Of a stretch of 64,000 nt of DNA, positions 11,117 through 35,662 are shown in pieces. Numbering within the stretch: the stretch's first letter is position 1; each line of letters opens with the position of its first letter. Under the pieces are notes generated by a model. That model worked only from the letters and a program-made list of their open reading frames with translations, was not told the origin of the DNA and ran no database searches. Made by a program: the position numbers and the translations under genes. Source of the stretch: Spirochaetia bacterium. Lineage in GTDB: Bacteria > Spirochaetota > Spirochaetia > UBA9216. The stretch spans positions 1,024,001 to 1,088,000 of the forward strand of contig OY776510.1 of NCBI GenBank assembly GCA_963675665.1. The letters run 5' to 3'.

Positions 11117-11124
11117 AGGCGGCG

Positions 11125-12002: not shown

Positions 12003-12010
12003 AATATTTT

Positions 12011-12408
12011 CTATCTGGTAATCTTTCGGATCATCTTTCCGACAAGTTTTGAAGTCTTTTTTGTCACTTCCCTGCCTGCTTCCCGTGCAATCTGGTTTTT
12101 GACGGCCCCGAACAGTTTTTCCGGGGAAATATCGCCCTTTATAGCTCCTTTCAGATCGAACGGTTTTTGTCGGTCCGAATCGGGCGCGGCCCCGGTTTCG
12201 GGGATATCGTCAATAGTCCATGCGGTTAGTGTTTTCCATTCACCGGAACCAGCCAGCCAGGCGGTAAATATCCTTTCCGTTGTTTCGACTGATAATCCGG
12301 GACCGCTGCTGTAATGTCCGGAAGCGTCCTGGTACTCGGCAATAAATCCCGTTTCGGAATACGCGCACTGGATATAGTCTTCTCCGTTTGAAAGAATCAG
12401 AAAATCGT
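12011..12408 (-). pseudogene. 5'-truncated duplicate of the hypothetical gene at 22859..23344
   Basis: Identical in protein to residues DFLILSNG...RKITR of the 161-aa gene except for one G/E change. The track's N-terminus (12409-12478) is unrelated sequence. Confidence 0.85.
12012..12408. repeat. 397-bp direct repeat, copy 1 (copy 2 at 22860..23256)
   Basis: Base-by-base comparison shows 5 substitutions and no indels. Confidence 0.95.
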
Positions 12409-17891: not shown

Positions 17892-17910
17892 GGAATAAGT
17901 TTTCAATCAA

Positions 17911-17941
17911 CTGATGTTAGGATAAAACATCCTAACATCAG
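17911..17941 (+). terminator. Intercistronic stem-loop after the SBP gene (mRNA stabiliser or partial terminator)
   Basis: Perfect 13-bp stem CTGATGTTAGGAT-aaaac-ATCCTAACATCAG. Confidence 0.65.
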
Positions 17942-17974
17942 GTAAATTTTGTTAATTAGGTAGAGCAGGTTGAG

Positions 17975-19498: not shown

Positions 19499-20477
19499 AA
19501 TAAAAAGAATATCGGCTGATTTGATCAGGCGGCCGTCATTTACCAGTTTCCTCATATTAGTAGTTTTAGTTATTGTAAATGCGATAATTCAGCCCAACTT
19601 TTTTTCGTATCGATCATTAAAATCAAATTTCATGAGCTACACTCCGCTAATATTTGCGGCGGTAGCACAGGGAATGATAATACTCTCCGGTTCCATAGAT
19701 CTGTCGCTTGGAAGTACCATAGCATTGCTCAATTGTCTGACGGCTTCAATGCTGTCCGATTCAAATGTATTCAAGGTAATGATGTTTGGTCTTTTTATAA
19801 CACTTGTCGTCAGCGGTGTTATTAATGGATTATTAATCGGTAAATTAAATCTGTCTCCGTTGATTACTACATTTGCAACCTCGGCAATATATTTAGGAAT
19901 TGCGATGATTATCCTGCCTAAAGCAGGCGGGTATGTCCCGAGGTTTTTATATAATTATTATAAGGGCAGTTTTCTGGGAATTATACCTAATGCCTTTCTA
20001 TTGTTGATTTTAGGTTTGGCTTTATGGTTAATATTCAGCAGAACTTCCGCATATAGATATATCTATGCTGTAGGCAGCAATGAAGACGGCGCTTTTGCCT
20101 CCGGAATTTCAATTTTAAAAACCCGCCTTTTTGCACATCTTTTTTCCGGGTTTTTTATTTTTCTTGCGGGAGTATGTGTTATTATGTTTACTTCAACCGG
20201 AGACTATCGAACGGGAAGCAGCTATACAATGAATTCAATTGCCGCTGTTGTTATCGGAGGAATCTCTCTTTCCGGAGGAAAAGGTTCGATGGCAGGCGCC
20301 GTATGGGGCGCTTTGATATTAGGAGTCCTGAATAATATAATATTCTATTCACATGCCTCTTCATATTTCCAGGTGTTGGCAAAGGGTCTGATTATTGTTG
20401 CTGCATTATGTATCGGAATTATTCCGGCGCTGATTAATAATTCAAGAATGAAAAAAATCGGGGGAAATCTTAAATGA
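19491..20477 (+). CDS. Sugar ABC transporter permease
   Basis: IDLSLG, YAVGSNEDGAFASGI, IAAVVIGGISLSGGKG. Confidence 0.93.
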   Translation: MNKIKRISADLIRRPSFTSFLILVVLVIVNAIIQPNFFSYRSLKSNFMSYTPLIFAAVAQGMIILSGSIDLSLGSTIALLNCLTASMLSDSNVFKVMMFGLFITLVVSGVINGLLIGKLNLSPLITTFATSAIYLGIAMIILPKAGGYVPRFLYNYYKGSFLGIIPNAFLLLILGLALWLIFSRTSAYRYIYAVGSNEDGAFASGISILKTRLFAHLFSGFFIFLAGVCVIMFTSTGDYRTGSSYTMNSIAAVVIGGISLSGGKGSMAGAVWGALILGVLNNIIFYSHASSYFQVLAKGLIIVAALCIGIIPALINNSRMKKIGGNLK

Positions 20478-21490
20478 GTGAAATGGCATGTTCGGATAAA
20501 AATGACAGAGGTTCATCAGGAATTTTATTGCGAATAATCAATAACAGGGTTCTTTTTGCATTTATTTTGGTACTGTTTCTTTTTATATTCGGTGAGATAA
20601 TAGTTCCCGGATTTATCAAGTTTAACCATATTATGTCAGTGCTGCAGGCTTCATTCTTTCTGGGAATTATAAGTCTTGGTCAGACAATTGTTGTGATTTC
20701 AGGTGATGATGGTGTAGATCTTTCTGTAGGGGCTGTTTTAACCCTGGGCGTAGTAATTGGAGCTGCAGTTATTAATGGCGATAATGGGCGCGTACTGTAT
20801 GCAATACTTGCTGCTGTCAGTGCAGGTTTTATTGTCGGAATGGTTAACGGTATAGGAGTCTCGATATTGAAAATTTCTCCGTTGATAATGACTATGTCCT
20901 GGGGAATAGTCATTGAAGGAGGGATATTGTTTGCGATAAAAGGACATATGTATGGAACCGGGTCATCTTTCCTGGACATGATTGGAAACGGACATTTTAC
21001 AATTCCTGCATCCTCCGGAGGAAGTTTTACAATTCCATATGTCCTGTTTATTTGGGTTGTTTTAATTTTATTAGCAGTTTTTATTCTGAAAAGAACACGA
21101 GTGGGTTTTATCCTGTATGCTATTGGAGAAAACGATAATGCAGCACGTTTGCAGGGGATAAGAACCGGACTTGTCCGTATTCTGGTATATGGCATTAGCG
21201 GCTTACTGTCATGCCTGACCGGCATACTCCTTTTAGGCTATGTAGGAAGTGCGCATTTGAATTTAGGTAATCGATATATTCTTCCTTCTATTGTTGCAGT
21301 TGTTATTGGGGGTACGAATTTCGGCGGCGGCGCAGGCAGTTATATTGGAACGGTCGGCGGCGCAATATTCTTAACAACATTACAGAGTATATTGGTAACT
21401 CAGGAGATGTCTGAAGGCAGTAAACAGGTAGTTACCGGTTTAGTATTGTTGCTTTTATTAATTTTGTATAACAGAAAAAAGCAAAGATAA
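20474..21490 (+). CDS. Sugar ABC transporter permease
   Basis: VDLSVG, YAIGENDNAARLQGI, VAVVIGGT. Confidence 0.93.
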   Translation: MSEMACSDKNDRGSSGILLRIINNRVLFAFILVLFLFIFGEIIVPGFIKFNHIMSVLQASFFLGIISLGQTIVVISGDDGVDLSVGAVLTLGVVIGAAVINGDNGRVLYAILAAVSAGFIVGMVNGIGVSILKISPLIMTMSWGIVIEGGILFAIKGHMYGTGSSFLDMIGNGHFTIPASSGGSFTIPYVLFIWVVLILLAVFILKRTRVGFILYAIGENDNAARLQGIRTGLVRILVYGISGLLSCLTGILLLGYVGSAHLNLGNRYILPSIVAVVIGGTNFGGGAGSYIGTVGGAIFLTTLQSILVTQEMSEGSKQVVTGLVLLLLLILYNRKKQR

Positions 21491-21514
21491 ATATTCATAC
21501 ATAAGGAGATTATA

Positions 21515-22771
21515 ATGGAAGCGGATGTTAAGGAATTATACGATAATAGATTAAAAAGGGTAAAAGATGCTATAGCACTGAAAGAGCCGGATCAGATACC
21601 TATTGTCAGTCCTGTTCAGAAATTTGTTTACGATCATGCCGGAATCACTATGCGTGAGGCTATGTATGAATATGATAAAACCAAATTTGCATGTAAGAAA
21701 TTTGCAGAAGAATTCACGCCTGATATGGATTTTGGGCCCTGGTTTGCACTGCCCGGAAAGGTTTTGGATATTACCAAATTAAACTGGCTTCGCTGGCCGG
21801 GCGGCGGACTGGAAGATGACAATAATATGTATCAATTTATTGAAGATGAATATATGAAAGAAGATGAATACGATGAATTCAATTTTGATATGACTCATTT
21901 TCTTTTAACAAAATGGCTGCCCCGCTCGGTTGGAAATGCAGAAGGATTAAAAAACTTCCCGGTAATAAGAAACGCCATGTGGTTCGGGTGGTTTCCGGCT
22001 TGTCTGCCGTTTGCTTCAGATGAGCTGATCAAGGCTTTTGATACACTGAAAAGAGCAGGCGAAGAATTAGGTAATTATTATAGTTTCGTAGGGCAATACT
22101 TTGACGAAGTAAAGAGTGAATTCGGAATGCCCGCTGCTGCAGGATCCTTTGCCTGGGCGCCCTTTGATTTAATTGGAGATACTCTTCGCGGAACCGAAGG
22201 CGTTCTGATGGATATGTATGATCGACCTGAAAAACTCGAAGAAGCAATAGACAGAATGGTGCCGATCGGTATTGATATGGGTGTTCAGGGATTAAAAAAC
22301 AATCAGAACCCATTCTGCTGGATCTGGCTTCATAAAGGAATGGATTCGTTCATGTCTGATGAATATTTCTCCAGGTTCTACTGGAAAAGCTTCCTCAAGA
22401 TGATAGAGGGAATGGTTGAAGAAGGAGTAATTCCGATGATTTACGGAGAGGGTTCCTTAAATTCCAGACTTAAATATTTTGCCGAATTGCCTAAAGGCAA
22501 GTGTATGCTCCATCTTGAAAATGCCGAAATTGAGGAAATGCGAACCGCCAAAGAAACTCTTAAAGATGTAGTATGTCTTTCTGGAAATGTTCCGAATATT
22601 TTATTCTCGCACGGTTCTGTTGATGAAATAAAAGACTATACAAAAAAACTGATAGATATTTGCGGTAAAGACGGAGGATATATAATGGATACCTCTGCGT
22701 TATTGGATGAGGCAAAGCCCGAGAATGTCAGAGCCTGGTTCGACACGACCCGTGAATACGGCCGTTATTAA
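21515..22771 (+). CDS. Uroporphyrinogen decarboxylase / MtaA-CmuA-like TIM-barrel family protein
   Basis: EPDQIP, APFD-IGD-LRG, DMYDRPE, CLSGNVP, GGYIMD and KPENV pattern. Confidence 0.8.
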   Translation: MEADVKELYDNRLKRVKDAIALKEPDQIPIVSPVQKFVYDHAGITMREAMYEYDKTKFACKKFAEEFTPDMDFGPWFALPGKVLDITKLNWLRWPGGGLEDDNNMYQFIEDEYMKEDEYDEFNFDMTHFLLTKWLPRSVGNAEGLKNFPVIRNAMWFGWFPACLPFASDELIKAFDTLKRAGEELGNYYSFVGQYFDEVKSEFGMPAAAGSFAWAPFDLIGDTLRGTEGVLMDMYDRPEKLEEAIDRMVPIGIDMGVQGLKNNQNPFCWIWLHKGMDSFMSDEYFSRFYWKSFLKMIEGMVEEGVIPMIYGEGSLNSRLKYFAELPKGKCMLHLENAEIEEMRTAKETLKDVVCLSGNVPNILFSHGSVDEIKDYTKKLIDICGKDGGYIMDTSALLDEAKPENVRAWFDTTREYGRY

Positions 22772-23519: not shown

Positions 23520-24641
23520 GTGAAATATCTAATCACAGTCATCTTCCTGCTGTTGCTTGTTGCATATTCGCTGTCCGGAGAACCCCTTACAACCGGGGTG
23601 GTCGAATTTGAAGAAAAAAATGATATCGGGCTGGATAATGCCGGGATAATTATTCCCGAAGTTCTTGTTTCACACTTGAAAAATATCGGCAAATATAAAT
23701 TTACGGAACGTATACTGTTAAAAAAGGTGCTCGAAGAACAGGCCCTGCAGATGAGCGGAATAATTGATGAAGATACAGCGGGAGAAGTGGGAAAACTTTT
23801 CGGTCTTGAGGCGGTAATCACCGGTTCGGCAATGAAGATCGGCGATGAAATCACAATCAGCGGAAGGGTCATAAAAACCGAGACTGCGGAGATTATAGCA
23901 TCCGGAACGATAGAATTCACGGAAATCGACAGGCTGAAAGAAAACCTGGAAAAACTGGCTTATCTTCTGTCGGGTTATTCGGAAGACGATTATCAGAATA
24001 TAAAGGTTTCCTATGAAATCTCCAAGAACAACTACGGTTTAAGGCTCGGTTCGGGATATGCCCGGAATTCAAACGATAACGGGTTTTCGGGCCTGCTTAT
24101 AGGCCTGTTCTACCAGGGAGAGAAAATCAGCGCAGAGTTTAACGGTATTCCTCCTGTTCTTGCCAATGTCGCCCTGATAAACCCAGCGGTCAGTTATTTT
24201 CCGTTTACCCATGTCGGATTCGGAGCAAGCTTCATCTTCTGCAGCGATGAACTGAGCAAGGCTGATAAAAATGTAACAGGCGAGGACCATTGGCACGGGG
24301 AATACATGTCGGTTCTTCTTGGAATTAATCTGAGAGCTTCCGAAGCACTAAGGGGTTCCGTATACATGGGGCCGACAATTGACACGGCCATAATGTATCA
24401 GGATGAACAGAATGAAGAGAGGCATTATTCCGGCGGATTTCAGTTCGGGTTTCCTCCTCCGGCAATAACCGTTGAAGCTGAATACTGGTTTCCCAATAAT
24501 ATGTCCTTACGGTTTTTGTTTATAATGGACGGCGGCGACGGCGTATTTGAAGGTGCGGAGACTGATACCGATGGCATGAGCACAATGTTTATAACTCTGT
24601 CGTTGGGATATAAATTTTCAATAAAATCCAGTGATAAATAG
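23520..24641 (+). CDS. Exported protein with CsgG/FlgO-like N-terminal domain and probable C-terminal beta-barrel
   Basis: AGGAGG + GTG start; ER-x-L-x2-VLEEQALQMSG...EVGKLFG...VITGS...RVIKTETAEI; glycine/aromatic strands ending LGYKF. Confidence 0.75.
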   Translation: MKYLITVIFLLLLVAYSLSGEPLTTGVVEFEEKNDIGLDNAGIIIPEVLVSHLKNIGKYKFTERILLKKVLEEQALQMSGIIDEDTAGEVGKLFGLEAVITGSAMKIGDEITISGRVIKTETAEIIASGTIEFTEIDRLKENLEKLAYLLSGYSEDDYQNIKVSYEISKNNYGLRLGSGYARNSNDNGFSGLLIGLFYQGEKISAEFNGIPPVLANVALINPAVSYFPFTHVGFGASFIFCSDELSKADKNVTGEDHWHGEYMSVLLGINLRASEALRGSVYMGPTIDTAIMYQDEQNEERHYSGGFQFGFPPPAITVEAEYWFPNNMSLRFLFIMDGGDGVFEGAETDTDGMSTMFITLSLGYKFSIKSSDK

Positions 24642-24693
24642 AGAAAACATCTGTTTGTCCGGGGTTAAAGCCCTTTAACCGTTTGGTAGATTT

Positions 24694-26517
24694 TTATTTC
24701 AAATTAAATCTAATCGTAAAAATGCAACCGCTTGGTTTTTTGTTTGAATAGTTTATTGTTCCGTTATATTTATTAATAATGTTGTAGACTACCGACAACC
24801 CCAGTCCCATATTGTTGCCGGTGTTTTCCTTTGTTGAAAAGAATGGAGAAAACACCTTCTCTATGTATTTTTTATTTATTCCCGGACCATTGTCGCTTAC
24901 TTTAATTTCTACCTCTCTGGAATTTTCTTTAACATCAAGAGAAGTGACAATTTCAATTTCTCCGCCGTCGTTCATTGCTTCAAAACTGTTTCGGATCAGG
25001 TTTAAAAGAATTTGCTTGAATTCAATCGGGTTTATTATAAGCCAGATATCTTCGCGTGATTTGGTAAAATATATTTTTATGTTCTGGTATTGGGCGTTGA
25101 AATTCAAAAGGTTAATTGTTTCCTGCACCAATGAGTTAATTTCAACCTTATCGGTCCAGTCTACAGGTTTGTTTGCGAAGGTCATCAGGTTGCTGGTAAT
25201 ATGGGCGATTGTATTTATTTCGCTGCACAAATTATCTACAGTTTCTTTAAGTGCTGTGTCATCTAATTTCAGGTTAAGGTATTCCAGGTAATTATAAACT
25301 GCAGTCAAAGGATTATTTATCTCATGAGCAACTCCGGCGGCAAGCAGTCCGGTAGACGCAAGCCGTTCCGACAAAATAACCTTTTCACGAAGTTCTTCTC
25401 TTTGGGTTATATCTTCAAGAATTATAATTGAACCGATAAGAAATGAACCGTCATATATCGGATGTGTTTTTATATTTACTCTAAGCTTATCTGATTTTGT
25501 CGTAAAGTTTAAATTAAAATAATTTTTTTCATTTGATTTTAATAAACCGTCTTTTATTAAAGTAAAGATGTCAGGATTTTCTTCAAATAAGTATTCAATA
25601 TTCTTTCCGAGAAATTTATCTGTTTTTGAAAAAAAGCTTTTTGCCTGGTGATTGATTAGTTTTATATTGTTATGACGATCAAGCGCCAGCAGTATAACCG
25701 GAAGTTTCTCCAGAATGGCTTTGTTGTATTTTAACAGTTGATAAAATTCTTCTTTTTCGGAATCAATCATGTCTTCCGACATTATCTGCGTATAAGCCAG
25801 TTTTATCAGGTTGATTTTGTCAATATTTTTTACTCTGTCGGTAATAATTAGCTCGCCGTTTCTTATTATAGTAACCTTGTCGGCGAATTCATAAATGTCG
25901 TCTATACGATGCGTAACATAAAGAATGGTTGTGCCTTCTTCTCTCAATTTTTTGAGAATGTTGATTATTTTTGTAAAATTTATCTGCGACAGTTTCTGAA
26001 GGGCTTCATCAAGAATAAGCAAAGAAGGTTGAGTATAGATATGCTTAATTATTTCAATCAGAATCCTGTCTGAAAGTTTAAGGTTTCGTATTTTAATATT
26101 AGGATCAATATTGAAACCGTACTGTTGTATTATTTTTCTTGCGTTCTCTGTAATTTTTGTTTTATTTTTTCTGAAATATCCGGTCTTGTTTTTTATATGG
26201 GAAAACAAATTGTCCGCAACTGAAAAATTATCAAGCATAGGAAATTGTTGAGTTATAATTTCTACTCCATTATCCATTGCGGTTTCGCGGCTGAAAAAGG
26301 AATGTCTCTTACCGTTGAAAATTATATCTCCGTTTATCGGTTTTTCTATTCCGCTGATGATATTGCATAAAGATGTTTTGCCTGCTCCGTGTTCGCCGAC
26401 TATTGCAATTATTTCTGATTTATTAACCGAATAGTTGATATTTTTCAGTACCTTAAAACCGTTATATGAAAGCTCTATGTTCTGTAATTCAAGCAGCTTA
26501 ATTTGTTCTGATTTCAT
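24694..26517 (-). CDS. Soluble sensor histidine kinase with N-terminal sugar-type ABC ATPase domain (ABC-NBD-PAS-HisKA-HATPase)
   Basis: Walker A GEHGAGKT, Q-loop, Walker B LLILDE, H-loop VTHR; PAS ending EDIT; H-box AHEINNPL; N box NLIRNS; G1 DNGPGI; F box FSPFFSTK; G2 GLGLS; no TM segments. Confidence 0.92.
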   Translation of the reverse strand: MKSEQIKLLELQNIELSYNGFKVLKNINYSVNKSEIIAIVGEHGAGKTSLCNIISGIEKPINGDIIFNGKRHSFFSRETAMDNGVEIITQQFPMLDNFSVADNLFSHIKNKTGYFRKNKTKITENARKIIQQYGFNIDPNIKIRNLKLSDRILIEIIKHIYTQPSLLILDEALQKLSQINFTKIINILKKLREEGTTILYVTHRIDDIYEFADKVTIIRNGELIITDRVKNIDKINLIKLAYTQIMSEDMIDSEKEEFYQLLKYNKAILEKLPVILLALDRHNNIKLINHQAKSFFSKTDKFLGKNIEYLFEENPDIFTLIKDGLLKSNEKNYFNLNFTTKSDKLRVNIKTHPIYDGSFLIGSIIILEDITQREELREKVILSERLASTGLLAAGVAHEINNPLTAVYNYLEYLNLKLDDTALKETVDNLCSEINTIAHITSNLMTFANKPVDWTDKVEINSLVQETINLLNFNAQYQNIKIYFTKSREDIWLIINPIEFKQILLNLIRNSFEAMNDGGEIEIVTSLDVKENSREVEIKVSDNGPGINKKYIEKVFSPFFSTKENTGNNMGLGLSVVYNIINKYNGTINYSNKKPSGCIFTIRFNLK

Positions 26518-27802
26518 AATGTTTCATCTTGTTATATAGAGTCTTTCTGCTTATACCGAGTAATTGCGCCGCCGCCGATTTATGATTATTTGTTGTTTTC
26601 AGCGCCTTGAGAATCAATTCTTCTTCATTATTTTTTTTTATGCTTAATGAATAAGGCGTTTCTTTAGTATTAAGATACGGCGGCAGATCGTTAATCCGGA
26701 TCTCGTCATTCCTGGCTAAAACCAGCGCATAATTAATAACATTCTCAAGCTCACGTATATTTCCGGGCCAGGAAAATGTTTTAAAAAGGAGAGTTGTTTC
26801 TTTGCTGAGGTGTTTATTGCTTCCTTTCTTTTTGATGAAAATTGCCGACAGGTGTTCAATATCTTCAATTCTGTCTCTGAGCGGCGGCAGTATTACTGTA
26901 GCCGTGTTCAGCCTGTAGTACAGATCCTTGCGAAAGGTTTTTTCCTTAATCATCTCGGGTAAGTCTTTATTTGTTGCTGCAATAAATCGTACATCAATAT
27001 TCAGATCTTCTTTTCCGCCGAGGCGGCGTATCTCCTTGTTCTGAATGGCTCTTAAAATTTTTGCCTGGAGCGACAGCGGCATGTCGCCAATCTCATCCAG
27101 AAAAAGGGTGGATTTATCTGCACGTTCAAAAACTCCTTTAAATAAATCTCCTGCGCCTGTGTAAGCGCCTTTTTCATGGCCGAACAGTTCATTTTCCAGA
27201 AGAGATTCGTTAAAAGACGAGCAGTTGATTTTAACAGCTTTTTTTCCCCTGTGCTGTGAGTTTTTATGAATGAAATCGGCAAGGACCTCTTTCCCGGTAC
27301 CGCTTTCGCCCTGTATCAGGATTGGAATGTCTGATGTTGCAAGGACTTTTACTTTCTCGATTATTTCCTGCATTTCCGAATTCAGAGAAAAGACGGAATC
27401 GTTGACATTCAGGACATTGCTGTTTTCTTCAGCTGTTTGAAGATGCTTCTCAATTATTGTGAAGAGCTTTTTAAAATTAATAGGTTTCTGTATATAGTTT
27501 TTTGCGCCGAACTGAATTGCCTGTACTGCAGTCTCGATTGTTCCGAAAGCGGTTATCATTATTATGGGAATATCCGTATTATATGAAAGCAGTTTTTTCA
27601 GTATAGACATGCCGTCTTCATCACCAAGCCTGATGTCCAGCAGGGTTAAATCCACCGATGAAGATGAATAATGCCTTGCCGCCTCTTCAAAATTTCCTGC
27701 ATAGAGACAATAAAAACCCTTTTCAAGCAGAAGTGGTGATAAACTTTTATAGATGCTGATATTGTCGTCAACCAGTAAAATTGTTTTTTCAAATGTCACC
27801 AT
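26498..27802 (-). CDS. Sigma54-dependent response regulator (NtrC/AtoC family)
   Basis: REC (LLVDD, LLDIRL, ITAFG, KP), AAA+ (GESGTGKE, ELFGHEKGAYTGA, FLDEIG), Fis HTH. ATG 27802 is preferred because upstream codons overlap the UAS. Confidence 0.93.
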   Translation of the reverse strand: MVTFEKTILLVDDNISIYKSLSPLLLEKGFYCLYAGNFEEAARHYSSSSVDLTLLDIRLGDEDGMSILKKLLSYNTDIPIIMITAFGTIETAVQAIQFGAKNYIQKPINFKKLFTIIEKHLQTAEENSNVLNVNDSVFSLNSEMQEIIEKVKVLATSDIPILIQGESGTGKEVLADFIHKNSQHRGKKAVKINCSSFNESLLENELFGHEKGAYTGAGDLFKGVFERADKSTLFLDEIGDMPLSLQAKILRAIQNKEIRRLGGKEDLNIDVRFIAATNKDLPEMIKEKTFRKDLYYRLNTATVILPPLRDRIEDIEHLSAIFIKKKGSNKHLSKETTLLFKTFSWPGNIRELENVINYALVLARNDEIRINDLPPYLNTKETPYSLSIKKNNEEELILKALKTTNNHKSAAAQLLGISRKTLYNKMKHYEIRTN

Positions 27803-27818
27803 ATTACCCAAAATATAC

Positions 27819-27845
27819 AAACATGGGTATACATTACCCATGTTT
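27819..27845. promoter_or_regulatory. Palindromic upstream activating sequence (probable binding site of the sigma54 activator)
   Basis: AAACATGGGTA-tacat-TACCCATGTTT, 11-bp perfect arms, about 115-140 bp upstream of the -24 box. An extra ATTACCCA half-site lies at 27803-27810. Confidence 0.7.
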
Positions 27846-27957
27846 GATTTAATCAAATAAGGAATTGTAAAAGCAAAATTTGTATTTGTCCAGAAAATAA
27901 TGTTTCAGAGGTTATTTCCTGATTCATTTTATCGATTTAAACGCTATTTCGTGTTGT

Positions 27958-27973
27958 TGGCATGGATGATGCT
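27958..27973 (+). promoter_or_regulatory. Sigma54 (-24/-12) promoter of the sugar ABC operon
   Basis: TGGCATGGATGATGCT, with GG (27959-60) and GC (27971-72) at canonical spacing. Confidence 0.8.
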
Positions 27974-28003
27974 TTATATAAGCAAATCTACAGGAGGTTT
28001 TTT

Positions 28004-28948
28004 ATGAAACTGTTAAAAACTTTACTAATTGTAATGGCCGTCGTTTTGATTGCAGCAGGCTCTTTGTCTGCAGCAGGTCAGCAGGAATCCGACGGAAAGC
28101 TGAAGATCGTGCTTGTTCCCAAATCGGTAGGACATCCGTTCTGGGCTGATCTGGAGAAGGGTATGGAAGATAAAGCGGAAGAAATGGGAGTAACAGCTTT
28201 TTTTCACGGCCCCCAGAGTGCAACCGCAAGCGGCCAGATATCAATAATTGAAGATTATCTTGCAATGGGAGTTGACGGAATTGCTATAGCGGCTAACGAC
28301 CCTGATGCAATCAAGAAGTATGTTGAAATGGGTCTTGAGCAGGGTGTCCAGATGGTTACGTTCGACACTGATGCTCCCGACAGCGGACGTCTTTTTTATG
28401 TCGGAACTGATAATGTAGCCGCAGGCAACCAGGGTGCGGAAGCACTGATAAAGATGATGAACGGAAAAGGCAAGGTTGCAATACTTACTGGCGGACTGAC
28501 AGCGCTTAATCTCAATCAGAGAATTGAAGGTTTCGAGAAAGCTGTTGCTGCGTATCCTGATATAGAAATTGTTGCCAAGGAATCTCATGGTGATTCTCTG
28601 GAACAGGGGATTCCTCTGATGGAAAACCTTTTAACTGAATATCCGGATATCGATGCGTTTTATTGTGTAAGCGGTCCCAATGTAGCAGCGGAAGGGTTGA
28701 AGTCTGCAGGATATGCACCCGGAGAAAAAATTGTCTTCGGCTTCGACATTTTCGATCCTGTTCCTGCTCTTATCAGAGAGGGGTATATACAGGGAACTGT
28801 TGCTCAGCTTCCGTATAAAGAAGGCCAGATAGTTGTAGAAAAACTTGTTGCCAAGATAAACGGTGAAAGTGTAGATGAAATCGTCGGCACAGGCACAAAT
28901 GTAGTTACATCAGAGAATATTGACGCATATCTCTCAGAGGTTCATTAA
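28004..28948 (+). CDS. Sugar ABC transporter substrate-binding protein (RbsB-like)
   Basis: AGGAGG + ATG 28004; signal ending SAAGQQE; VPKSVGHPFW, TFDTD, YVGTDN, NLNQRIEGF. Confidence 0.92.
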   Translation: MKLLKTLLIVMAVVLIAAGSLSAAGQQESDGKLKIVLVPKSVGHPFWADLEKGMEDKAEEMGVTAFFHGPQSATASGQISIIEDYLAMGVDGIAIAANDPDAIKKYVEMGLEQGVQMVTFDTDAPDSGRLFYVGTDNVAAGNQGAEALIKMMNGKGKVAILTGGLTALNLNQRIEGFEKAVAAYPDIEIVAKESHGDSLEQGIPLMENLLTEYPDIDAFYCVSGPNVAAEGLKSAGYAPGEKIVFGFDIFDPVPALIREGYIQGTVAQLPYKEGQIVVEKLVAKINGESVDEIVGTGTNVVTSENIDAYLSEVH

Positions 28949-28957
28949 GGATTTTTG

Positions 28958-28992
28958 CCGGGGCATAAGGTAAAACATTGCCCCGGGGTTTT
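28958..28992 (+). terminator. Intercistronic stem-loop after the SBP gene
   Basis: CCGGGGCA...TGCCCCGG followed by a short T run. Confidence 0.55.
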
Positions 28993-29006
28993 ATGAGGTA
29001 AATTGC

Positions 29007-30521
29007 ATGACTGATGTACTGCTTGATTTAAGATCTATTTCAAAAAAATTCCCCGGGGTTAAAGCTCTGGATAATGTTAATATTCAAATTAAAAAAGGTG
29101 AGGTTCATTCGATTCTGGGAGAAAACGGTGCAGGGAAATCTACACTGATGAAAATAATCAGCGGTGCGTTGAATAAAGATGAAGGTGAGATGATTTTTGA
29201 AGGCCGGACCGTCAGTTTCTCGAATACAATGGACTCTCAAAAAGCCGGAATAGCGATGATATATCAGGAGTTTAATCTTGCGCCGCATTTGACGGTTGAA
29301 GACAATGTCTTTATTGCAAACGAACCCTGTTCAAGGTTAAATATTGTTGATAGAAAAACTGTTCGCAAAAGAACATTCGAGCTGCTGGACAGTATAGACT
29401 TCAAACTGGATCCTTCAAAAAAAATAAAGAACCTGAATGTCTGTGAACAGCAGATTACGGAAATAATCAAAGCGCTTCGAAATGAATCAAAGCTAATCAT
29501 TATGGACGAGCCGACGTCTGCGTTAACCGAGAACGAAATCAGAAAATTCTTTAAATGTATTGATAAAATGAGAAGCGAAGGTCTCAGTATCTTATTCATA
29601 TCACATAACCTTGAAGAGGTTTTTGAGATCTCTGATACGATTACTGTTATGCGTGACGGAAAATCGGTCGGAACCTACCCGATTGATGAAATCACACCGA
29701 ATGATGCAGTCAGGCTGATGGTCGGAAGAGAAGTTGAAAATATCTACGACAGGAAGACTGTAGAAATTGGCGAAGAAGTTCTGAGAGTAAAGAATTTATC
29801 CAGTCCCGGCAAAATACACGATGTTTCGTTTACTCTCAGAGAAGGTGAGGTTCTCGGTATCTGCGGTCTGCTCGGCGCCGGGAAGACTGAAATTGTCCGC
29901 GGCATTTTCGGTGCGGATACGAAAGCGACGGGAGAAGTATTCATAAAGGGCAGAAAATTAAAAGTAGGCAATATTAATGATGTTATAGATGCGGGTATCG
30001 GATTAATACCTGAGGACAGAAAAAACCAGGGATTATTTCTGGACAAAAACATAAAAGAAAACCTGAGTGCAGCAAGTATTGAAGAGCTTTCAAAATGTAA
30101 GTTCCTTTCAAAAATGCGGGAGCAGGATCTTGCTTCTCAATATGTGGAGATTCTGCGCATAAAGACCTCCGGTTTGAAGCAGATTGTCAATAATTTGAGT
30201 GGCGGGAACCAGCAGAAAGTTGTAATCGGCAAATGGCTTGCTCTTTCTCCGAAAGTGCTGCTTATGGATGATCCGACAAGGGGTGTTGATATCGGCGCGA
30301 AACAGGCTATCTATAAACTTATCGGAGAGCTTGTGTCCTCCGGTGTCGGGGTGATTTTTATTTCTTCCGAGCTGCCGGAGGTTATAGGGATTTCGGATCG
30401 TCTGCTGGTGATTGCGGATGGAGAATTAAAAGCGGAATTTAGAAGTGATGATGCAACCCAGGAAAAAATCCTGACAGCGGCAACATTAAAAACAAAACTA
30501 AATTCAGAAAAGGCGGTATGA
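29007..30521 (+). CDS. rbsA: Sugar ABC transporter ATP-binding protein (RbsA/MglA-like)
   Basis: GENGAGKST, IIMDEPT, PEDRK, LSGGNQQKV. Confidence 0.9.
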   Translation: MTDVLLDLRSISKKFPGVKALDNVNIQIKKGEVHSILGENGAGKSTLMKIISGALNKDEGEMIFEGRTVSFSNTMDSQKAGIAMIYQEFNLAPHLTVEDNVFIANEPCSRLNIVDRKTVRKRTFELLDSIDFKLDPSKKIKNLNVCEQQITEIIKALRNESKLIIMDEPTSALTENEIRKFFKCIDKMRSEGLSILFISHNLEEVFEISDTITVMRDGKSVGTYPIDEITPNDAVRLMVGREVENIYDRKTVEIGEEVLRVKNLSSPGKIHDVSFTLREGEVLGICGLLGAGKTEIVRGIFGADTKATGEVFIKGRKLKVGNINDVIDAGIGLIPEDRKNQGLFLDKNIKENLSAASIEELSKCKFLSKMREQDLASQYVEILRIKTSGLKQIVNNLSGGNQQKVVIGKWLALSPKVLLMDDPTRGVDIGAKQAIYKLIGELVSSGVGVIFISSELPEVIGISDRLLVIADGELKAEFRSDDATQEKILTAATLKTKLNSEKAV

Positions 30522-31537
30522 ATATTATGAAATACACTGACACTGTAAACAAGGAAAAGGATGACATCGAAGAAAAACAGATTAATAAGTGTACGAATAT
30601 TCTGAAAAAAATATTTAACTTTCAGGAATCGGCGATTTTATTTGTATTTATTATTTTCTGTATTCTGCTGTCTATCGTTGCTCCGAGGTTTTTGCTTCCG
30701 CAAAACATATCAAATGTAATCAGACAGTTTTCAATGGTTGCTATAGTAGCAGTCGGAATGAGCTTTGTTATAATTTCCGGAGGAATTGATCTTTCAGTCG
30801 GCGGTATCGTCGCCTTTGTCGGCGTTTCAGTTGCCTGGATGATAGTAAATATGGGGATGCCTATCTGGCTGGCCATATTCATCGGCCTGATTCTCGGATC
30901 ATTTCTTGGTCTTCTTAATGCAATACTGATTGTTCGGGTCGGACTGCCTCCGTTCATTGCGACCCTTGGAACAATGCAGATTTCCAGAGGGCTGGTTCTG
31001 GCTTTAACCAGGGGGTACCCCATCAGACCGTTTCCCGAAGTCTTTCTGGCAATAGGTCACGGCAAAATAGGCGTTATCCCGGTTCCTATTGTAATCATGA
31101 TCATCGTAATTATTGTTGCTCATATATTTCTGAGTAAAACAACAACCGGCAGGTATATCTACTATACGGGCAGCAACCTTGATGCCGCGGTTCTGTCCGG
31201 AATAAAAACCAAACGGATTTTGTCGTCGGTCTATATAATTACAGGGTTTCTTTGCGCAGTAGCGGCGGTTTTGTTGACAGCCAGGCTGTCTTCGGCCCAG
31301 AGCAATATGGCTGAAGGCTGGGAGCTTGATGCTATTGCCGCTGTCGTAATAGGCGGGGCAAGCCTGTCGGGCGGTGAAGGATCAATTATCGGCACTCTCA
31401 TAGGTGCGGCAATTATGGGAGTCATCAGAAACGCTCTGGTACTTCTTCACGTTTCGGTTTACTGGCAGACCGTTGTTATCGGCTGTGTAATTATTGCGGC
31501 GGTTACCATAGATAAAGTCAGGCATAAGGATAATTAA
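30518..31537 (+). CDS. rbsC: Sugar ABC transporter permease (RbsC-like)
   Basis: GGIDLSVG, PPFIATLG, ELDAIAAVVIGGASLSGG. Confidence 0.9.
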   Translation: MNIMKYTDTVNKEKDDIEEKQINKCTNILKKIFNFQESAILFVFIIFCILLSIVAPRFLLPQNISNVIRQFSMVAIVAVGMSFVIISGGIDLSVGGIVAFVGVSVAWMIVNMGMPIWLAIFIGLILGSFLGLLNAILIVRVGLPPFIATLGTMQISRGLVLALTRGYPIRPFPEVFLAIGHGKIGVIPVPIVIMIIVIIVAHIFLSKTTTGRYIYYTGSNLDAAVLSGIKTKRILSSVYIITGFLCAVAAVLLTARLSSAQSNMAEGWELDAIAAVVIGGASLSGGEGSIIGTLIGAAIMGVIRNALVLLHVSVYWQTVVIGCVIIAAVTIDKVRHKDN

Positions 31538-31552
31538 AAGAAGGGGAATGAT

Positions 31553-32332
31553 ATGAGATTTAAATCACAGGCAGCATTACTTACAGGTGCAGCGAGAGGA
31601 ATAGGAAAGGCAGTGGCAAAGAAGCTGGCCTCGGAAGGTTGTTATGTTGAAATTACCGATATAGACGAAAATGCAATAGATGAAGCTGTCAGGGAAATAA
31701 ATAAAGAATTCCCGGGACTGGCGGGCGGATCAATTATGGATGTAACTGATAGTTCATCGATAAACCGGGTTGTAAAAAAACTGTTAAATGAAAAAAGCAG
31801 GATTGATATCCTCGTTAATAATGCGGGAGCAAACGGAAAGGGCTGGGTTGTGGATTTTGAGGAGAAATTATGGCAGACGATTATTCAAACTAATCTTACG
31901 GGGACATTTCTCTGTTCAAAAGCGGTTTTGCCGGGAATGATAAAAAAAGGAAAAGGCAGGATTATTAATATTGCTTCAATTGCCGGAAAACAGGGCGAAT
32001 CGGCGGGAAGCGCCTATTGTTCTTCAAAGTTTGGAGTTATTGGTTTTACCCAGTCGCTGGCGCTCGAAGTAGCGGACAAAAATATACTGGTAAATGCCGT
32101 TTGCCCCGGCCCTATTCAGACTGAACTTGGTGAACTTGGAATTAATCAGGACGCAGCCCTGAGAGGTCTTGATCCGGATGAGTTTCGACAATGGTTTATC
32201 GATCGAACCCCGTTTAAACGGCAGGGAACGGTGGAGCAGGTTGCGAATATGGTTGCATTTATTGCTTCCGACGAGTGTGACTTTACTACAGGCGCCGCAT
32301 TCAATGTGAACGGCGGAATAATAATGCATTAG
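31553..32332 (+). CDS. Short-chain dehydrogenase/reductase (polyol/sugar dehydrogenase-like)
   Basis: TGAARGIG, NNAG, YCSSK, NAVCPG. Confidence 0.92.
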   Translation: MRFKSQAALLTGAARGIGKAVAKKLASEGCYVEITDIDENAIDEAVREINKEFPGLAGGSIMDVTDSSSINRVVKKLLNEKSRIDILVNNAGANGKGWVVDFEEKLWQTIIQTNLTGTFLCSKAVLPGMIKKGKGRIINIASIAGKQGESAGSAYCSSKFGVIGFTQSLALEVADKNILVNAVCPGPIQTELGELGINQDAALRGLDPDEFRQWFIDRTPFKRQGTVEQVANMVAFIASDECDFTTGAAFNVNGGIIMH

Positions 32333-32341
32333 GGGTTTGAA

Positions 32342-33223
32342 ATGAAGCAAATAACCCAAAATGTCTATGCTGCGGATAATTATGCCGGAGATAATCCCGC
32401 ATATATTAAAACAGTAGAAGGAATTGTGATTATTGATCCGCCGCAGATGCCGTCGGTAGCCGTTGAGCTGTTAGATATTGTGGAATCTGAAGGCCCTCTG
32501 AAATGGATCATAAATACCGAACATCATCCCGACCATACCTTTGGTAATTATTATTTTAACAAAATGGCGCCGGTTGCTGCGCACAGGGAATTATATTCAA
32601 GATTTATGACGGCGCCCGGGCTTGATTGTTATCGTAAGAATTATGATGAAACAAAAGCCAATGATCCTGAAGGCTTAAAATATTATCCTGAAGAGGAAGA
32701 GTACTGGCGGAACTGTAACAAACCGGTCGTCCTGTTTGATGATTATTTGAAGATCACAGTCGGAGGGCATGATTTCGAATGTTACCATACCGGCGGACAC
32801 ACTATAGATCAAATTTGTGTTTACTGCCCCCAGGAAAGGGTCCTGTTTCCGGGCGATACAATCTTTAACAAGGTGCAGATTTTTTTCGCAGAAGCGGATC
32901 CTTTCATAATACTTGAAGCGCTGGATTTTATCGAACAATTTGATGCCGAATATATTGTCCCGGGGCACGGTGAAATCTGCACAAAAGATGCAATTAATCA
33001 GAACAAGGCCTTTGTTATGGACTGGATAGGGGCGGTGCAGAACGGGATAGCAAAAGGCTGGAGTAGAGATGAATGCAGGGAACGTATAAGCTTTGCGGAT
33101 TCGTATCCGATAGATATCGGGCTTGATGCCGTTTTGTATGAGCTGCAGAAAGGCAATTCAGGCAAACTTTATGATTACCTGACAAGTAAGGGCCGGGGAA
33201 GAGGATACACGTTAATTCCGTAA
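32342..33223 (+). CDS. MBL-fold metallo-hydrolase (cyclase-like subgroup)
   Basis: NTEHHPDHTFGN, GGHT, FPGD, VPGHG. Confidence 0.9.
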   Translation: MKQITQNVYAADNYAGDNPAYIKTVEGIVIIDPPQMPSVAVELLDIVESEGPLKWIINTEHHPDHTFGNYYFNKMAPVAAHRELYSRFMTAPGLDCYRKNYDETKANDPEGLKYYPEEEEYWRNCNKPVVLFDDYLKITVGGHDFECYHTGGHTIDQICVYCPQERVLFPGDTIFNKVQIFFAEADPFIILEALDFIEQFDAEYIVPGHGEICTKDAINQNKAFVMDWIGAVQNGIAKGWSRDECRERISFADSYPIDIGLDAVLYELQKGNSGKLYDYLTSKGRGRGYTLIP

Positions 33224-33237
33224 AAAAAGGAAAAATT

Positions 33238-33876
33238 ATGAAAATAGCAATAATAAATGAAGTCAGCGCTGCGCACAGGAACGCTGATATTGTAAACGCG
33301 CTTGACGGCAGGGGTTTTGAGATTCTGAATATAGGAATGAAAAGCCCTGATGAAGAAAATAAAATTTTTTATACACACACCGGGTTTTTAACAGGTCTTG
33401 TGCTTAACCTTGGAATAGCCGATTTTGTAGTCGGCGGGTGCGGAACGGGACAGGGATATCTTGATTCGGCAATGCAGTATCCGGGGGTTTTTTGCGGTCA
33501 TATTCTCAATTCAATGGATTCATGGCTGTTTGCGCAGATTAACTCCGGCAATGCAGTGTCGCTTGCCCTGAACCAGGGGTATGGGTGGGCTGCCGAGATT
33601 AATCTCAGGTTTATATTTGACAGGTTGTTTGAGGTAGAGCATGGCTCAGGGTATCCGAAAAACCGTACTGAACCGCAGGAAAAGATGAGAAAAATGCTTG
33701 GAAGGGTGTCGGTATCGACTCACAAATCGCTATCGGAGATAATCAGGGATCTTGATGATGATGTAATAGAGCCTGCTTTGAATTATCCCGGCATTATGGA
33801 ATTGCTTGATATTGATAATATTGACGATGAACAGATAAGAACAGTACTGACGCAGAGGAGCAAGAGGTTAAATTAA
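33238..33876 (+). CDS. RpiB/LacA/LacB-family sugar isomerase with C-terminal extension
   Basis: MKIAIINE, VGGCGTGQG, QINSGNA, GYGW, GSGYP. Confidence 0.85.
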   Translation: MKIAIINEVSAAHRNADIVNALDGRGFEILNIGMKSPDEENKIFYTHTGFLTGLVLNLGIADFVVGGCGTGQGYLDSAMQYPGVFCGHILNSMDSWLFAQINSGNAVSLALNQGYGWAAEINLRFIFDRLFEVEHGSGYPKNRTEPQEKMRKMLGRVSVSTHKSLSEIIRDLDDDVIEPALNYPGIMELLDIDNIDDEQIRTVLTQRSKRLN

Positions 33877-34724
33877 TGAAGGTGCATTTGGAAGAAACAA
33901 CATTGGAAGAGCTGAAAAAAAAGGCTCGGAGAATCAGGGAACTGATTCTTACTACAACGCACAGCGCGGGTTGCGGACATACCGGCGGATCACTTTCCGA
34001 GGTGGAAATATTAACAGCCCTGTTTTTTAATATTATGGATATAGATGAAAAAAACCCGAAGAAGGAGCCCCGAGACAGGTTCGTTTTATCGAAAGGACAT
34101 GCGACGCCGGGATATTATTCGACTCTTGCTCTCAGGGGTTTTTTCCCGGAAAAAGAACTGGCGGGTTTTGATTCGCTTGGAAGTTTTCTGCAGGCCCATC
34201 CCGATATGCATAAATGTCCCGGTGTTGATTTTTCAAGCGGGTCTCTCGGCCAGGGGCTTTCCATCGGTCTCGGAATGGCTCAGGGTCTTGCCGGGAAAGG
34301 AGAAAAAGGCGTTACTTTCGTGCTCATTGGGGACGGCGAAAGTCAGGAAGGCCAGATATGGGAAGCTGCGATGTATGCAGGTGCAAAAAATGTAAGAAAC
34401 ATCGTGTGCATTGTTGATTACAATAAGGTTCAGCTTGCATCCACAACAGAAGAAGCTGTTTCCCTTGAACCGCTTAAGGAAAAGTGGGAGGCTTTCAACT
34501 GGAATGTGATGGAATGTGATGGTCATGATATGAAAGATATTCTTTCTGCACTGACGGCGGCAAAAGAAGCAAGCGGCAATGGGCCGGTAGTTATACTTGC
34601 GCATACGGTAAAAGGAAAGGGTGTAAGTTTTATGGAAGGCCGTTATCAGTGGCACGGAAAAGCCCCCAATGATGAAGAGTTTCAGCAGGCAATAAACGAG
34701 ATATATGCCGGAGGAGAAATATGA
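33876..34724 (+). CDS. Transketolase, N-terminal (TPP-binding) subunit
   Basis: GHTGGSLS, DRFVLSKGH, GSLGQG, GDGESQEG...N, HTVKGKG, WHG. Confidence 0.95.
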   Translation: MKVHLEETTLEELKKKARRIRELILTTTHSAGCGHTGGSLSEVEILTALFFNIMDIDEKNPKKEPRDRFVLSKGHATPGYYSTLALRGFFPEKELAGFDSLGSFLQAHPDMHKCPGVDFSSGSLGQGLSIGLGMAQGLAGKGEKGVTFVLIGDGESQEGQIWEAAMYAGAKNVRNIVCIVDYNKVQLASTTEEAVSLEPLKEKWEAFNWNVMECDGHDMKDILSALTAAKEASGNGPVVILAHTVKGKGVSFMEGRYQWHGKAPNDEEFQQAINEIYAGGEI

Positions 34725-35662
34725 GAATAGGTGAAGCAATAGCTCCAAGGGTCGTCTTCGGTGAAACTCTTGTTGAACTTGGTAAGGAGTATGAAAAGCT
34801 GGTTGTTCTCGATGCGGATGTAGGAGCTTCTACGCAGACTGCACTGTTTAGAGATGAATACCCGGACAGGTTCTATCAATGCGGAATTGCCGAGGCAAAT
34901 ATGGTCGGAATGTCGGCGGGAATGGCTGCCGTCGGCATGATTCCCTTTGTTTCAACCTTTGCAATTTTTCTGACAAAACGCGCGGGAGATCAGATAAGAA
35001 ACTCTATAGGATATCCGGGGATGAATGTAAAATTAAACGGTGCATACGGAGGGCTTCCTACAGGCAAGGCCGGAGCCACCCATTCCGCAATTGAGGATAT
35101 TGCCGTTATGAGAGCAATTCCGGGAATGACAATTCTTGTTCCCTGCGATCCGGTTGAAACCCGGCTTGCAGTCAAACTGGCAATGGAAACCGAAGGTCCT
35201 GTTTATCTGAGAACTGTGCGTTGTCCGGTTGAAACAATTTTTGATGAAAGTCATAAGATGGAATTGGGTAAAGCGAAAGTTGTTCATGAAGGCGGCGATG
35301 CGGTCATTATATCCACCGGGATGATGACGCCGAAGGCCCTTCGGGCGGCAAAAGCGCTTGAATCAGAAGGTATCGATCTGAAGGTTATTCATATGGGTAC
35401 AATTAAACCGATAGACGAAGATGCAGTTGTTTCTGCAGCAATAGAGTTCGGTCATATTTTTACTTTGGAAAATCATAGCGTGATAGGCGGTTTAGGAAGC
35501 GCCGTTGCTGAAGTAACCGCAAAAAAAGCCCCCTGCAGGGTTAAAATGCTCGGTTTTCAGGATATTTTTCTGGAATCAGGTGATAATGAATTATTATTCT
35601 CAAAATATGGAATGAATGTGGATAATATTAAACAGGAAATCCGAAGGAAAGTATGTAAGTAA
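34721..35662 (+). CDS. Transketolase, C-terminal subunit
   Basis: LDADV, GIAEANM, GATH, GPVYLR, ENHSVIGGLGSAVAE. Confidence 0.95.
   Translation: MRIGEAIAPRVVFGETLVELGKEYEKLVVLDADVGASTQTALFRDEYPDRFYQCGIAEANMVGMSAGMAAVGMIPFVSTFAIFLTKRAGDQIRNSIGYPGMNVKLNGAYGGLPTGKAGATHSAIEDIAVMRAIPGMTILVPCDPVETRLAVKLAMETEGPVYLRTVRCPVETIFDESHKMELGKAKVVHEGGDAVIISTGMMTPKALRAAKALESEGIDLKVIHMGTIKPIDEDAVVSAAIEFGHIFTLENHSVIGGLGSAVAEVTAKKAPCRVKMLGFQDIFLESGDNELLFSKYGMNVDNIKQEIRRKVCK

Follow-up and report, generated by a model that had tools for sequence, protein, structure and literature searches.

Relation to described systems

The sensor kinases AtoS and ZraS are membrane-bound, their input being periplasmic or transmembrane (TM). 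The locus reported here lies within a 64-kb stretch of DNA (64,000 nucleotides of contig OY776510.1 of a Spirochaetia bacterium; hereafter the window, to which all positions refer unless a locus is named). It resembles the AtoS-AtoC, ZraS-ZraR and NtrB-NtrC pairs in its PAS-HisKA-HATPase_c kinase core, in the partner regulator composed of a receiver domain (REC), an AAA+ domain and HTH_8, and in its -24/-12 promoter output. It differs from AtoS and ZraS in that the kinase, a 607-aa fusion protein (24694–26517, minus strand), has no TM helix and carries at its input end the nucleotide-binding domain (NBD) of an ATP-binding cassette (ABC) transporter.

In the PstSCAB-PhoU-PhoR system the state of the importer NBD is read via PhoU and the cytoplasmic PAS domain of PhoR, and in the maltose system idle MalK holds MalT. 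Both use the transporter's own motor NBD in trans, whereas here a dedicated, altered NBD copy is placed in cis to the PAS domain and the kinase. In the case of LevR-type sigma54 activators of sugar operons, components of the phosphotransferase system phosphorylate the activator; a sigma54-dependent sugar operon set by transport machinery would be common to both systems, with a histidine kinase and an ABC-type domain taking part here. BceS is an intramembrane-sensing kinase in contact with the permease, and the NBD of that transporter, BceA, forms a transport subunit of its own. Pairs of the BceS-BceAB type, in which the kinase needs the ABC transporter as a co-sensor, have been described (PMC3023708). 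Transporter activity as kinase input is the idea shared with the present locus, in which, however, the polypeptide of a soluble kinase includes an additional NBD, and the transporter concerned is an importer equipped with a binding protein. The membrane-spanning kinases of the ChvE-VirA and XylFII-LytS systems meet a periplasmic sugar-binding protein outside the cell. The fold class of the sugar-binding protein (SBP) is the same here, but the kinase is cytoplasmic, so that a signal from outside would have to pass via the permease or via uptake itself. The N-terminal halves (N-halves) of CUT2 transport ATPases (RbsA, AraG, MglA, XylG) share with the kinase NBD the Walker A motif, the Q-loop, the Walker B Asp-Glu pair and the H-loop; in contrast to these ATPases, the kinase has a single NBD without a C-terminal half (C-half), an altered signature and D-loop, and a family linker and kinase domains after the NBD.

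To our knowledge, the motor domain of an ABC transporter is not among the characterised kinase input domains. The original prediction, made from the window sequence alone, had also named no characterised fusion of an ABC NBD with a histidine kinase, and no description of one was found in the full-text literature as far as it was accessible, subscription journals being largely outside its scope. NCBIfam release 20.0 (June 2026) contains no model whose cut-off the kinase reaches and, since every match falls below its cut-off, no curated family covers the protein. Its unusual part is the input; the output half is ordinary, consisting of an AtoS/NtrB-like kinase, an NtrC-like activator and a sigma54 promoter. 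The results presented below identify a real, conserved sensor family, a variant of two-component signalling with a transporter ATPase domain as input. Two-component kinases are classed by their input domain, and the ABC-NBD input defines a family of at least 87 clusters in at least two phyla, with up to eight copies per genome. The system is also compact: besides the soluble kinase it comprises a single activator, promoter and transporter.

Domain architecture of the fusion kinase

The kinase gene was recognised by open reading frame (ORF) calling, and its product was examined with Pfam, NCBIfam and an AlphaFold2 (AF2) model. The limits given by AF2 and Pfam place the NBD at residues 1–242 (nt 25792–26517, minus strand as for all domains), a conserved linker at 243–270 (nt 25708–25791), a PAS domain at 271–370 (nt 25408–25707), the dimerization and histidine phosphotransfer domain (DHp) with His398 at 371–446 (nt 25180–25407), and the catalytic ATP-binding domain at 447–607 (nt 24697–25179). 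Pfam detected ABC_tran at residues 24–173 (E 2.2e-21), HisKA at 391–448 (E 5.2e-10) and HATPase_c at 497–606 (E 2.5e-22); a PAS match at 266–372 falls below the Pfam cut-off. The NCBIfam matches, all below cut-offs, divide the protein in two: residues 5–256 are matched by no more than the first half of the AraG, YtfR, MglA, XylG and RbsA profiles (~500 positions), and residues 260–606 align to AtoS (E 8.9e-74) and ZraS. Against the AtoS equivalog NF008468 (cut-off 646) the protein scores 248.9 bits and is covered only over residues 260–606; it is therefore no orthologue of AtoS.

Characteristic motifs were located at residues 41 (GEHGAGKT), 88 (ITQQ), 146 (LKLSD), 167 (LILDE), 202 (THR), 398 (HEINNPL), 542 (DNGPGI) and 571 (GLGL). 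The original prediction had described one uninterrupted 607-aa NBD-PAS-kinase ORF with an intact Walker A (GEHGAGKT), Walker B (LILDE) and H-loop and a degenerate signature (LKLSD); the domain matches and motif positions agree with this description in every point. The absence of a TM helix, likewise proposed there, follows from the highest 19-residue Kyte-Doolittle mean, which is 1.15 in the kinase and 3.01 in the permease of the same locus.

The AF2 monomer (26 homologues) comprises the NBD (1–242), a linker of low confidence (243–264), the PAS domain (271–369), a long DHp hairpin (371–445) and the catalytic domain (456–605). With a mean pLDDT of 77.6 and a pTM of 0.43, the model confirms the domain order and leaves domain packing undefined. 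The HisKA-class boxes (H398, N506, D542/G544/G546, F556/F559 and G571-L572-G573) are invariant in 26/26 homologues; together with the absence of a TM helix, they strongly support the prediction that the protein is a soluble HisKA-class sensor kinase.

Distribution of the fusion in bacterial genomes and metagenomes

Homology searches revealed at least 120 full-length homologues of 562–634 aa, with 41–60% identity over 91–100% of the query. Of the domain set for which the original prediction had suggested a search (ABC_tran, PAS, HisKA and HATPase_c), PF00005 (ABC_tran), HisKA and HATPase_c are common to all 120 best listed of them. The sources named include Spirochaetaceae, KSB3/Moduliflexus/Vecturithrix, Desulfomarina and Spartobacteria. 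The genome containing the window (5.15 Mb, one contig; “own genome” below) encodes 8 intact fusion paralogues. Of 401 genomes sampled in the same phylum, 14 contained fusions (E ≤ 1e-90; three candidates per genome scored); in a second phylum (that of locus L004) they were detected in 7 of 9 genomes, with 2–6 copies each. A 59-aa linker query matched 87 clusters at 50% identity among 1.84 billion representatives, and in full-length cluster members the match lies at residues ~215–290. Among the listed loci, 6 from genome contigs and 11 from metagenome contigs held fusions, most of the others being ordinary kinases or CUT2 ATPases.

An assembly chimera, a recent accidental fusion or a functionless pseudogene would be the trivial explanation of such an ORF. 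A 26.6-kb contig of run X1 spans positions 24600–27900 with 0 differences and may be the source of this very DNA. In addition, run X4, which belongs to another study, contains a 626-nt contig that matches positions 25340–25965 with 32 differences and bridges the NBD-linker-PAS junction. Depth peaks and joints at 26770–27290 fall in the conserved AAA+ region and stem from contigs of other organisms. Contigs of two studies thus cross the junction, the linker is nearly invariant, and the 120 full-length homologues, the 8 intact paralogues and the occurrence in 14/401 and 7/9 genomes of two phyla make an artefact hardly conceivable. The possibility of a chimera, named in the original prediction as a ground for its refutation, can therefore be dismissed.

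Marine metagenome contigs of runs X4 and X5 match the kinase and regulator genes, with ~95% identity in the 626-nt piece and 95–99% in the others, and no indels listed. These matches point to a related strain in the sea.

Origin and alteration of the nucleotide-binding domain

In a tree of 176 NBDs, all 26 kinase NBDs form one clade (support 0.858), which groups with the 69 CUT2 N-halves of the own genome (0.846), whereas the 69 C-halves stand apart (0.999). Since the kinase NBDs constitute a single clade joined to the N-halves, the tree indicates that the NBD was recruited once, anciently, from the N-terminal half of a CUT2 transport ATPase. The RbsA/MglA type assigned in the original prediction is in accordance with this tree as well as with the half-length NCBIfam matches.

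The motifs of 126 fusions were compared with those of the 69 N-halves, and residue invariance was assessed in 26 aligned homologues. The NBD keeps the Walker A motif, the Q-loop Gln, the Walker B Asp-Glu (LLILDE) and the H-loop. GEHGAGK, which differs from the GENGAGK of CUT2 ATPases by His in place of Asn, is invariant in 26/26, as are Q90, D170 and E171; H203 is kept in at least 90%. The segment following the Q-loop is also kept (ftVAeNLf in fusions, ltvaENifl in N-halves). In contrast, the ABC signature is lost (LKLSD in this kinase and L.LSDR in the family, compared with LS.a.qQ in the N-halves), so that no LSGGQ is found, and the D-loop region is altered (DEaLekL in fusions, DEPT..L in N-halves), without a recognisable SALD. 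The N-halves of the own genome already carry a weak signature (LS.a.qQ). A family-specific linker, NIDKINLIKxAYTQI...EFYQLLKYNEAIL, is nearly invariant.

A direct comparison is offered by the complete two-NBD CUT2 ATPase of the divergent operon (29007–30521, plus strand), which was identified by Pfam and is matched end to end by the XylG, AraG and RbsA profiles, below cut-offs. Its N-half contains GENGAGKST, LNVCEQQ and IIMDEPT, and its C-half GLLGAGKTE, LSGGNQQ and LLMDDPT. Read directly, the N-half has a catalytic Walker B and a weak signature, while the C-half has LSGGNQQ and lacks the catalytic Glu. Because the catalytic Walker B belongs to the N-half and the LSGGNQQ to the C-half, the kinase NBD, judged by its motifs, retains the contribution of an N-half to the one consensus ATP site. 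It is thus strongly supported by the motif comparison that the predicted parts for ATP binding and for coupling to membrane domains have been retained, and that those of the canonical catalytic NBD-NBD sandwich have been lost.

Genetic organization and conservation of the circuit

ORF calls indicate two divergent units, one on the minus strand with the regulator and kinase genes and one on the plus strand with the CUT2 ABC operon. The regulator (452-codon ORF, 26498–27856, minus strand) is a sigma54-dependent response regulator of the NtrC/AtoC type, with Response_reg (REC), Sigma54_activat (E 1.5e-65), AAA_lid_14 and HTH_8 domains in Pfam, GESGTGK at residue 183 and GAYTGA at residue 230. All the hallmarks of the NtrC family (REC, AAA+ with a GAFTGA-type loop, C-terminal helix-turn-helix) are thus present, and among NCBIfam models the protein is most like AtoC and NtrC, below curated cut-offs. 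The stop of its gene overlaps the kinase start by 20 nt; together with the regulator domains, this overlap supports the proposed operon of the kinase with an NtrC-family activator.

The divergent operon encodes a periplasmic SBP with a signal-peptide-like N-terminus (Peripla_BP_4; 27962–28948 as called, plus strand; Pfam, NCBIfam), the fused two-NBD ATPase described above and an RbsC-like CUT2 permease (BPD_transp_2; 30518–31537, plus strand; Pfam, NCBIfam), which together are the components of a CUT2 importer. The best NCBIfam matches of the SBP (RhaS, RbsB, AlsB and LsrB) all lie far below cut-offs and do not assign its substrate.

For other loci, ORFs were called by a script and labelled by phmmer against five window proteins, and an ATPase or permease gene within 8 kb was taken as CUT2 linkage. 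Several loci are close relatives or derive from the same genome, so the counts overstate independence. All eight kinase genes of the own genome follow and overlap an NtrC-type gene, and in 55 of 57 assessable copies across two phyla (35/37 and 20/20) the gene directly upstream is that of a regulator. The two misses, L120 and L147, have over-long ORF calls; a regulator ORF of L120 is listed at 10797–12317 and none was seen in L147. A CUT2 gene was found within 8 kb of seven of the eight own-genome copies, usually divergent from the regulator (chance 0.227 per copy, P = 2e-4), and within 8 kb of 47/51 copies elsewhere (29/31 with at least 6 kb of upstream sequence and 18/20 further loci). Of the further loci, 19 belong to the second phylum and one is another copy in the L002 genome; L217 was excluded from the counts of 20/20 and 18/20 since it repeats L004 (with L217 they become 21/21 and 19/21). 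When coordinates were compared by eye, none of the 54 BPD_transp_1 (type I permease) matches in the genome was within 8 kb of a fusion. The expectation that homologues stay beside CUT2 transporters and sigma54 activators, formulated in the original prediction as a check, was therefore borne out.

A sigma54-type -24/-12 promoter, TGGCATGGATGATGCT (27958–27973, plus strand), faces the ABC operon and was recognised by motif match and by its recurrence in other cassettes. It is the sole strict TGGCAYN6TGCW match in 64 kb and agrees with the consensus (TGGCAC-N5-TTGCW; GG and GC twelve bases apart, first G to G) at 10 of 12 positions. Since a mean of 0.48 strict sites is expected by chance in 64 kb, and 37 of 100 shuffles contained at least one, this single match is not significant alone; its significance comes from the comparative counts. 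Correctly oriented -24/-12 sites scoring 9–12/12 were found in 7/8 own cassettes, two of them among the only three perfect sites of the genome, in which 165 sites score at least 10 on both strands. In the other cassettes, sites scoring at least 10 were present in 33/47 (background, 76 sites in 820 kb), 26 in the divergent position and 7 just downstream of the kinase gene in a co-directional arrangement. Sequence, placement and orientation of the site, together with the presence of rpoN in the genome (C1:914059–914541), identify it as a predicted sigma54 promoter.

A perfect 12-nt inverted repeat, CAAACATGGGTA-N5-TACCCATGTTTG (27818–27846), is centred ~126 nt upstream of the -24/-12 site and is a candidate binding site of the activator (upstream activating sequence, UAS). 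Both the promoter and the palindrome of the divergent sugar operon had been noticed in the original prediction. A palindromic UAS is not general: among 7 own cassettes scanned it is clear only in own1 and own7, and of the 6 own cassettes other than the present one, own7 alone has a comparable repeat. The ATG at 27962 called as the SBP start sits within the -24/-12 element, and the ATG at 28004 opens the signal-peptide-like sequence; for these reasons the real start is likely to be the latter, which follows AGGAGG at 27992–27997. The -24/-12 site ends 19 nt before this AGGAGG. On the other strand, M19 (27802) or M6 (27841) is a more probable start of the regulator than the TTG at 27856; the inverted repeat would then lie in the intergenic region or at the very 5′ end of the regulator gene. 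Most likely, the phosphorylated activator would bind upstream of the divergent sigma54 promoter and switch on the operon for CUT2 uptake and catabolism.

Possible role of the NBD in signal input

Since the family has kept an intact coupling apparatus and stays with CUT2 systems, transport-coupled sensing is preferred here. Tentatively, the NBD may be an input module that reports the state of the CUT2 transporter through docking on the permease. The two NBDs of a kinase dimer would dock transiently on the coupling loops of the permease, and sugar-loaded binding protein outside would alter their spacing or closure. The conserved linker and the PAS domain would then relay the change to the DHp helices and set the balance of kinase and phosphatase activity, with either sign. 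Inhibition exerted by an idle transporter would offer a way round the start-up problem that a tight sigma54 promoter poses. It is a more doubtful proposition that the NBD pair sits on the permease dimer in place of, or in exchange with, the ATPase, so that SBP and permease form a transmembrane receptor that signals through a crippled NBD pair to a soluble kinase, eight times in one cell and for different sugars. If the NBD does read the transporter, this would be direct, covalent transport-coupled sensing, with an importer doubling as a receptor.

The original prediction had proposed modelling the kinase dimer with the permease dimer; the complex modelled here consisted of two permeases and NBD residues 1–250. 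It scored 0.58, compared with 0.26 for the best of 3 controls, which was rated as weak support. In the benchmark, 116 of 157 solved complexes passed the model mark, as did 2 of 215 mismatched pairs; only 18 of the 157 solved complexes passed with a score of 0.60 or under, along with both of the passing mismatches. The runs share at least 56% of contacts, with a partner pLDDT of at least 78. A sequence search found no solved structure of a CUT2 permease or ATPase, and the score of 0.58 may be explained by likeness to other ABC complexes.

The flank of the Q-loop and the helical subdomain form the docking cleft for the coupling helix in ABC transporters. Comparison of five identity-defined clades of 5–54 sequences showed that group-specific conserved positions are densest in residues 91–145 (mean 1.63, compared with 0.66–1.00 elsewhere), the top sites being 51, 89, 92, 93, 95 and 97. 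Within groups, residues 91–145 are as highly conserved as the rest, and similarity between groups is low, which is the pattern that a surface meeting a variable partner would leave in an alignment. Weaker group-specific sites were found in the DHp domain (412, 426, 431, 435 and 436), where kinase-regulator specificity is expected.

Two further approaches gave no usable signal. Cognate mimicry was rejected, as the cognate ATPases are not top over all, variable, interface or group-specific columns, for N- or C-halves. Co-evolution of the NBD with the transporter (partial Mantel r 0.22–0.31; n = 25; permease, ATPase and SBP) proved not robust, and the 5 complete cassettes of the own genome are too few for such a test.

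Several observations weigh against docking. The cognate N-half ranks 16, 37, 39, 19, 35, 46 and 32/11 among 69 ATPases over all columns and 42, 20, 51, 37, 3, 4 and 51/17 over the presumed interface columns. The Mantel signal is lost with ranks at n = 20 (r 0.05–0.09, p > 0.2), a set from which the near-duplicates L109, L111 and L120 and the doubtful L001 and L147 had been dropped. Cassette-linked ATPases are scattered in the CUT2 tree, with a common ancestor spanning 59/69 and weak clustering (p = 0.04), so that docking specificity would have been re-made repeatedly. The group-specific positions were derived from those five clades, and the region concerned varies in all NBDs. Every linked transporter has its own complete two-NBD ATPase; transport therefore does not require the kinase NBD, which would be a competitor for the permease. 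In a kinase homodimer both of the paired signatures would be degenerate, which makes a canonical ATP sandwich doubtful. Finally, a CUT2 gene within 8 kb is lacking at four loci (own3, L115, L219 and L220). Own3 (= L126, G000:C1:4312120–4320915) has no ABC transporter gene closer than 9 kb; its perfect sigma54 site, TGGCACGTCGATTGCT, faces genes for two Zn-dependent dehydrogenases, a pyruvate formate-lyase-like glycyl-radical enzyme and its radical S-adenosylmethionine activase; in L115 the cassette is followed by a LacI-type gene and araB/D/A-like genes. The docking claim of the original prediction, by which an NBD dimer replaces the ATPase on the RbsC-like permease, is thus a tentative one; it gains a little from the model, and loses by the negative mimicry result, the transporters' own ATPases and the four unlinked loci. 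Its premise that kinase dimerisation creates an NBD dimer is affected in that the two signatures that meet are both degenerate.

Some of these observations would be readily accommodated if the signal were cytoplasmic, i.e. if the PAS domain or the variable helical subdomain of the NBD read a sugar or metabolite and the NBD were an ATP-dependent dimer clamp away from the transporter, the CUT2 link being regulatory only. The kinase is soluble, with the PAS domain between NBD and DHp; two of the four loci lacking a transporter within 8 kb control catabolic enzymes; the docking surface does not mimic cognate ATPases; and the cassettes are combined with unrelated CUT2 transporters that own an ATPase. 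However, such sensing does not account for the near-invariance, over more than 100 proteins, of an ATP-binding transporter domain whose Q-loop is intact, nor does it explain why the neighbours are CUT2 systems and not the type I ABC permeases of the same genome. PAS divergence did not follow SBP divergence when the other domains were controlled (r -0.004 and r 0.05, a weak test), the PAS domain falls short of the Pfam cut-off, and a ligand pocket was not recognised. We consider this explanation somewhat less likely than transport-coupled sensing. An ATP-driven clamp, if true, would be a new way of gating a kinase.

Another use of the NBD would be that of an energy gate, in which it senses ATP/ADP or is a constitutive ATP-dependent dimerisation domain, tying costly uptake to the energy state and leaving sugar specificity to other parts. 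The invariant Walker A, Walker B Asp-Glu and H-loop, with signature and D-loop lost, fit nucleotide binding without canonical turnover, and every target is either an ATP-driven importer or a catabolic operon. The normal cellular level of ATP, far in excess of NBD affinities, counts against such a gate; 8 paralogues in one genome, each by a different transporter, favour cassette-specific signals, and the group-specific Q-loop surface suggests a variable partner. The gate is accordingly judged improbable. Even less probable is that the NBD acts on the transport ATPase instead of the permease, either as an N-half mimic meeting the C-half LSGGNQQ or with the kinase modulating transport. The NBD does keep the exact N-half motifs of the consensus site, and the C-half could supply the missing signature, but N- and C-halves are one chain with no free C-half evident, and no stand-alone C-half-like gene lies beside the own-genome cassettes.

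Neighbouring genes and variant loci

The permease gene is followed by five closely spaced genes on the plus strand (31553–35662), encoding a short-chain dehydrogenase/reductase family dehydrogenase, a metallo-beta-lactamase-fold protein, an RpiB/LacAB-like isomerase and the N and C subunits of a transketolase. They probably belong to the same operon as the CUT2 genes, and their content suggests a sugar or polyol catabolic module.

The genome is rich in CUT2 systems: phmmer searches with the window proteins detected 70 two-NBD ATPases, 93 permeases, 22 NtrC-like activators and the 8 fusions. Eight parallel cassettes among ~70 transporters of the same family in one genome raise the question of their insulation from cross-talk.

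The arrangement of cassettes varies among loci. In L075 (4962–11812) two complete regulator-kinase cassettes stand back to back, with a separate CUT2 operon flanking each of them, and L212 (9001–17029) has two cassettes with a single CUT2 operon between them. A lower-scoring subfamily (~230–310 bits to the query; L212, L218, L221, L222, L223, L225 and L008) shows the gene order regulator, kinase and then ATPase, permease and SBP on the same strand, with a -24/-12 site between the kinase and ATPase genes in five of the seven loci (L008, L212, L218, L221 and L222). In L116 (5698–7618) and L123 (2571–7710) a BPD_transp_2 permease is paired with a single-NBD ATPase of 262–281 aa and not with a fused two-NBD protein; such a half-size ATPase could in principle share the permease with the kinase NBD.

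Just downstream of the kinase gene and convergent with it lies a 373-aa ORF (23520–24641, plus strand) with a weak partial CsgG-like match (E 1.9e-08, residues 47–103). A second CUT2 operon (SBP, ATPase and two permeases) occupies window positions 16815–22771 and ends with a uroporphyrinogen decarboxylase (URO-D)-like gene (21515–22771). In L002, too, the divergent ABC operon next to the fusion has a URO-D-like gene (L002:7218–8474) in first position.

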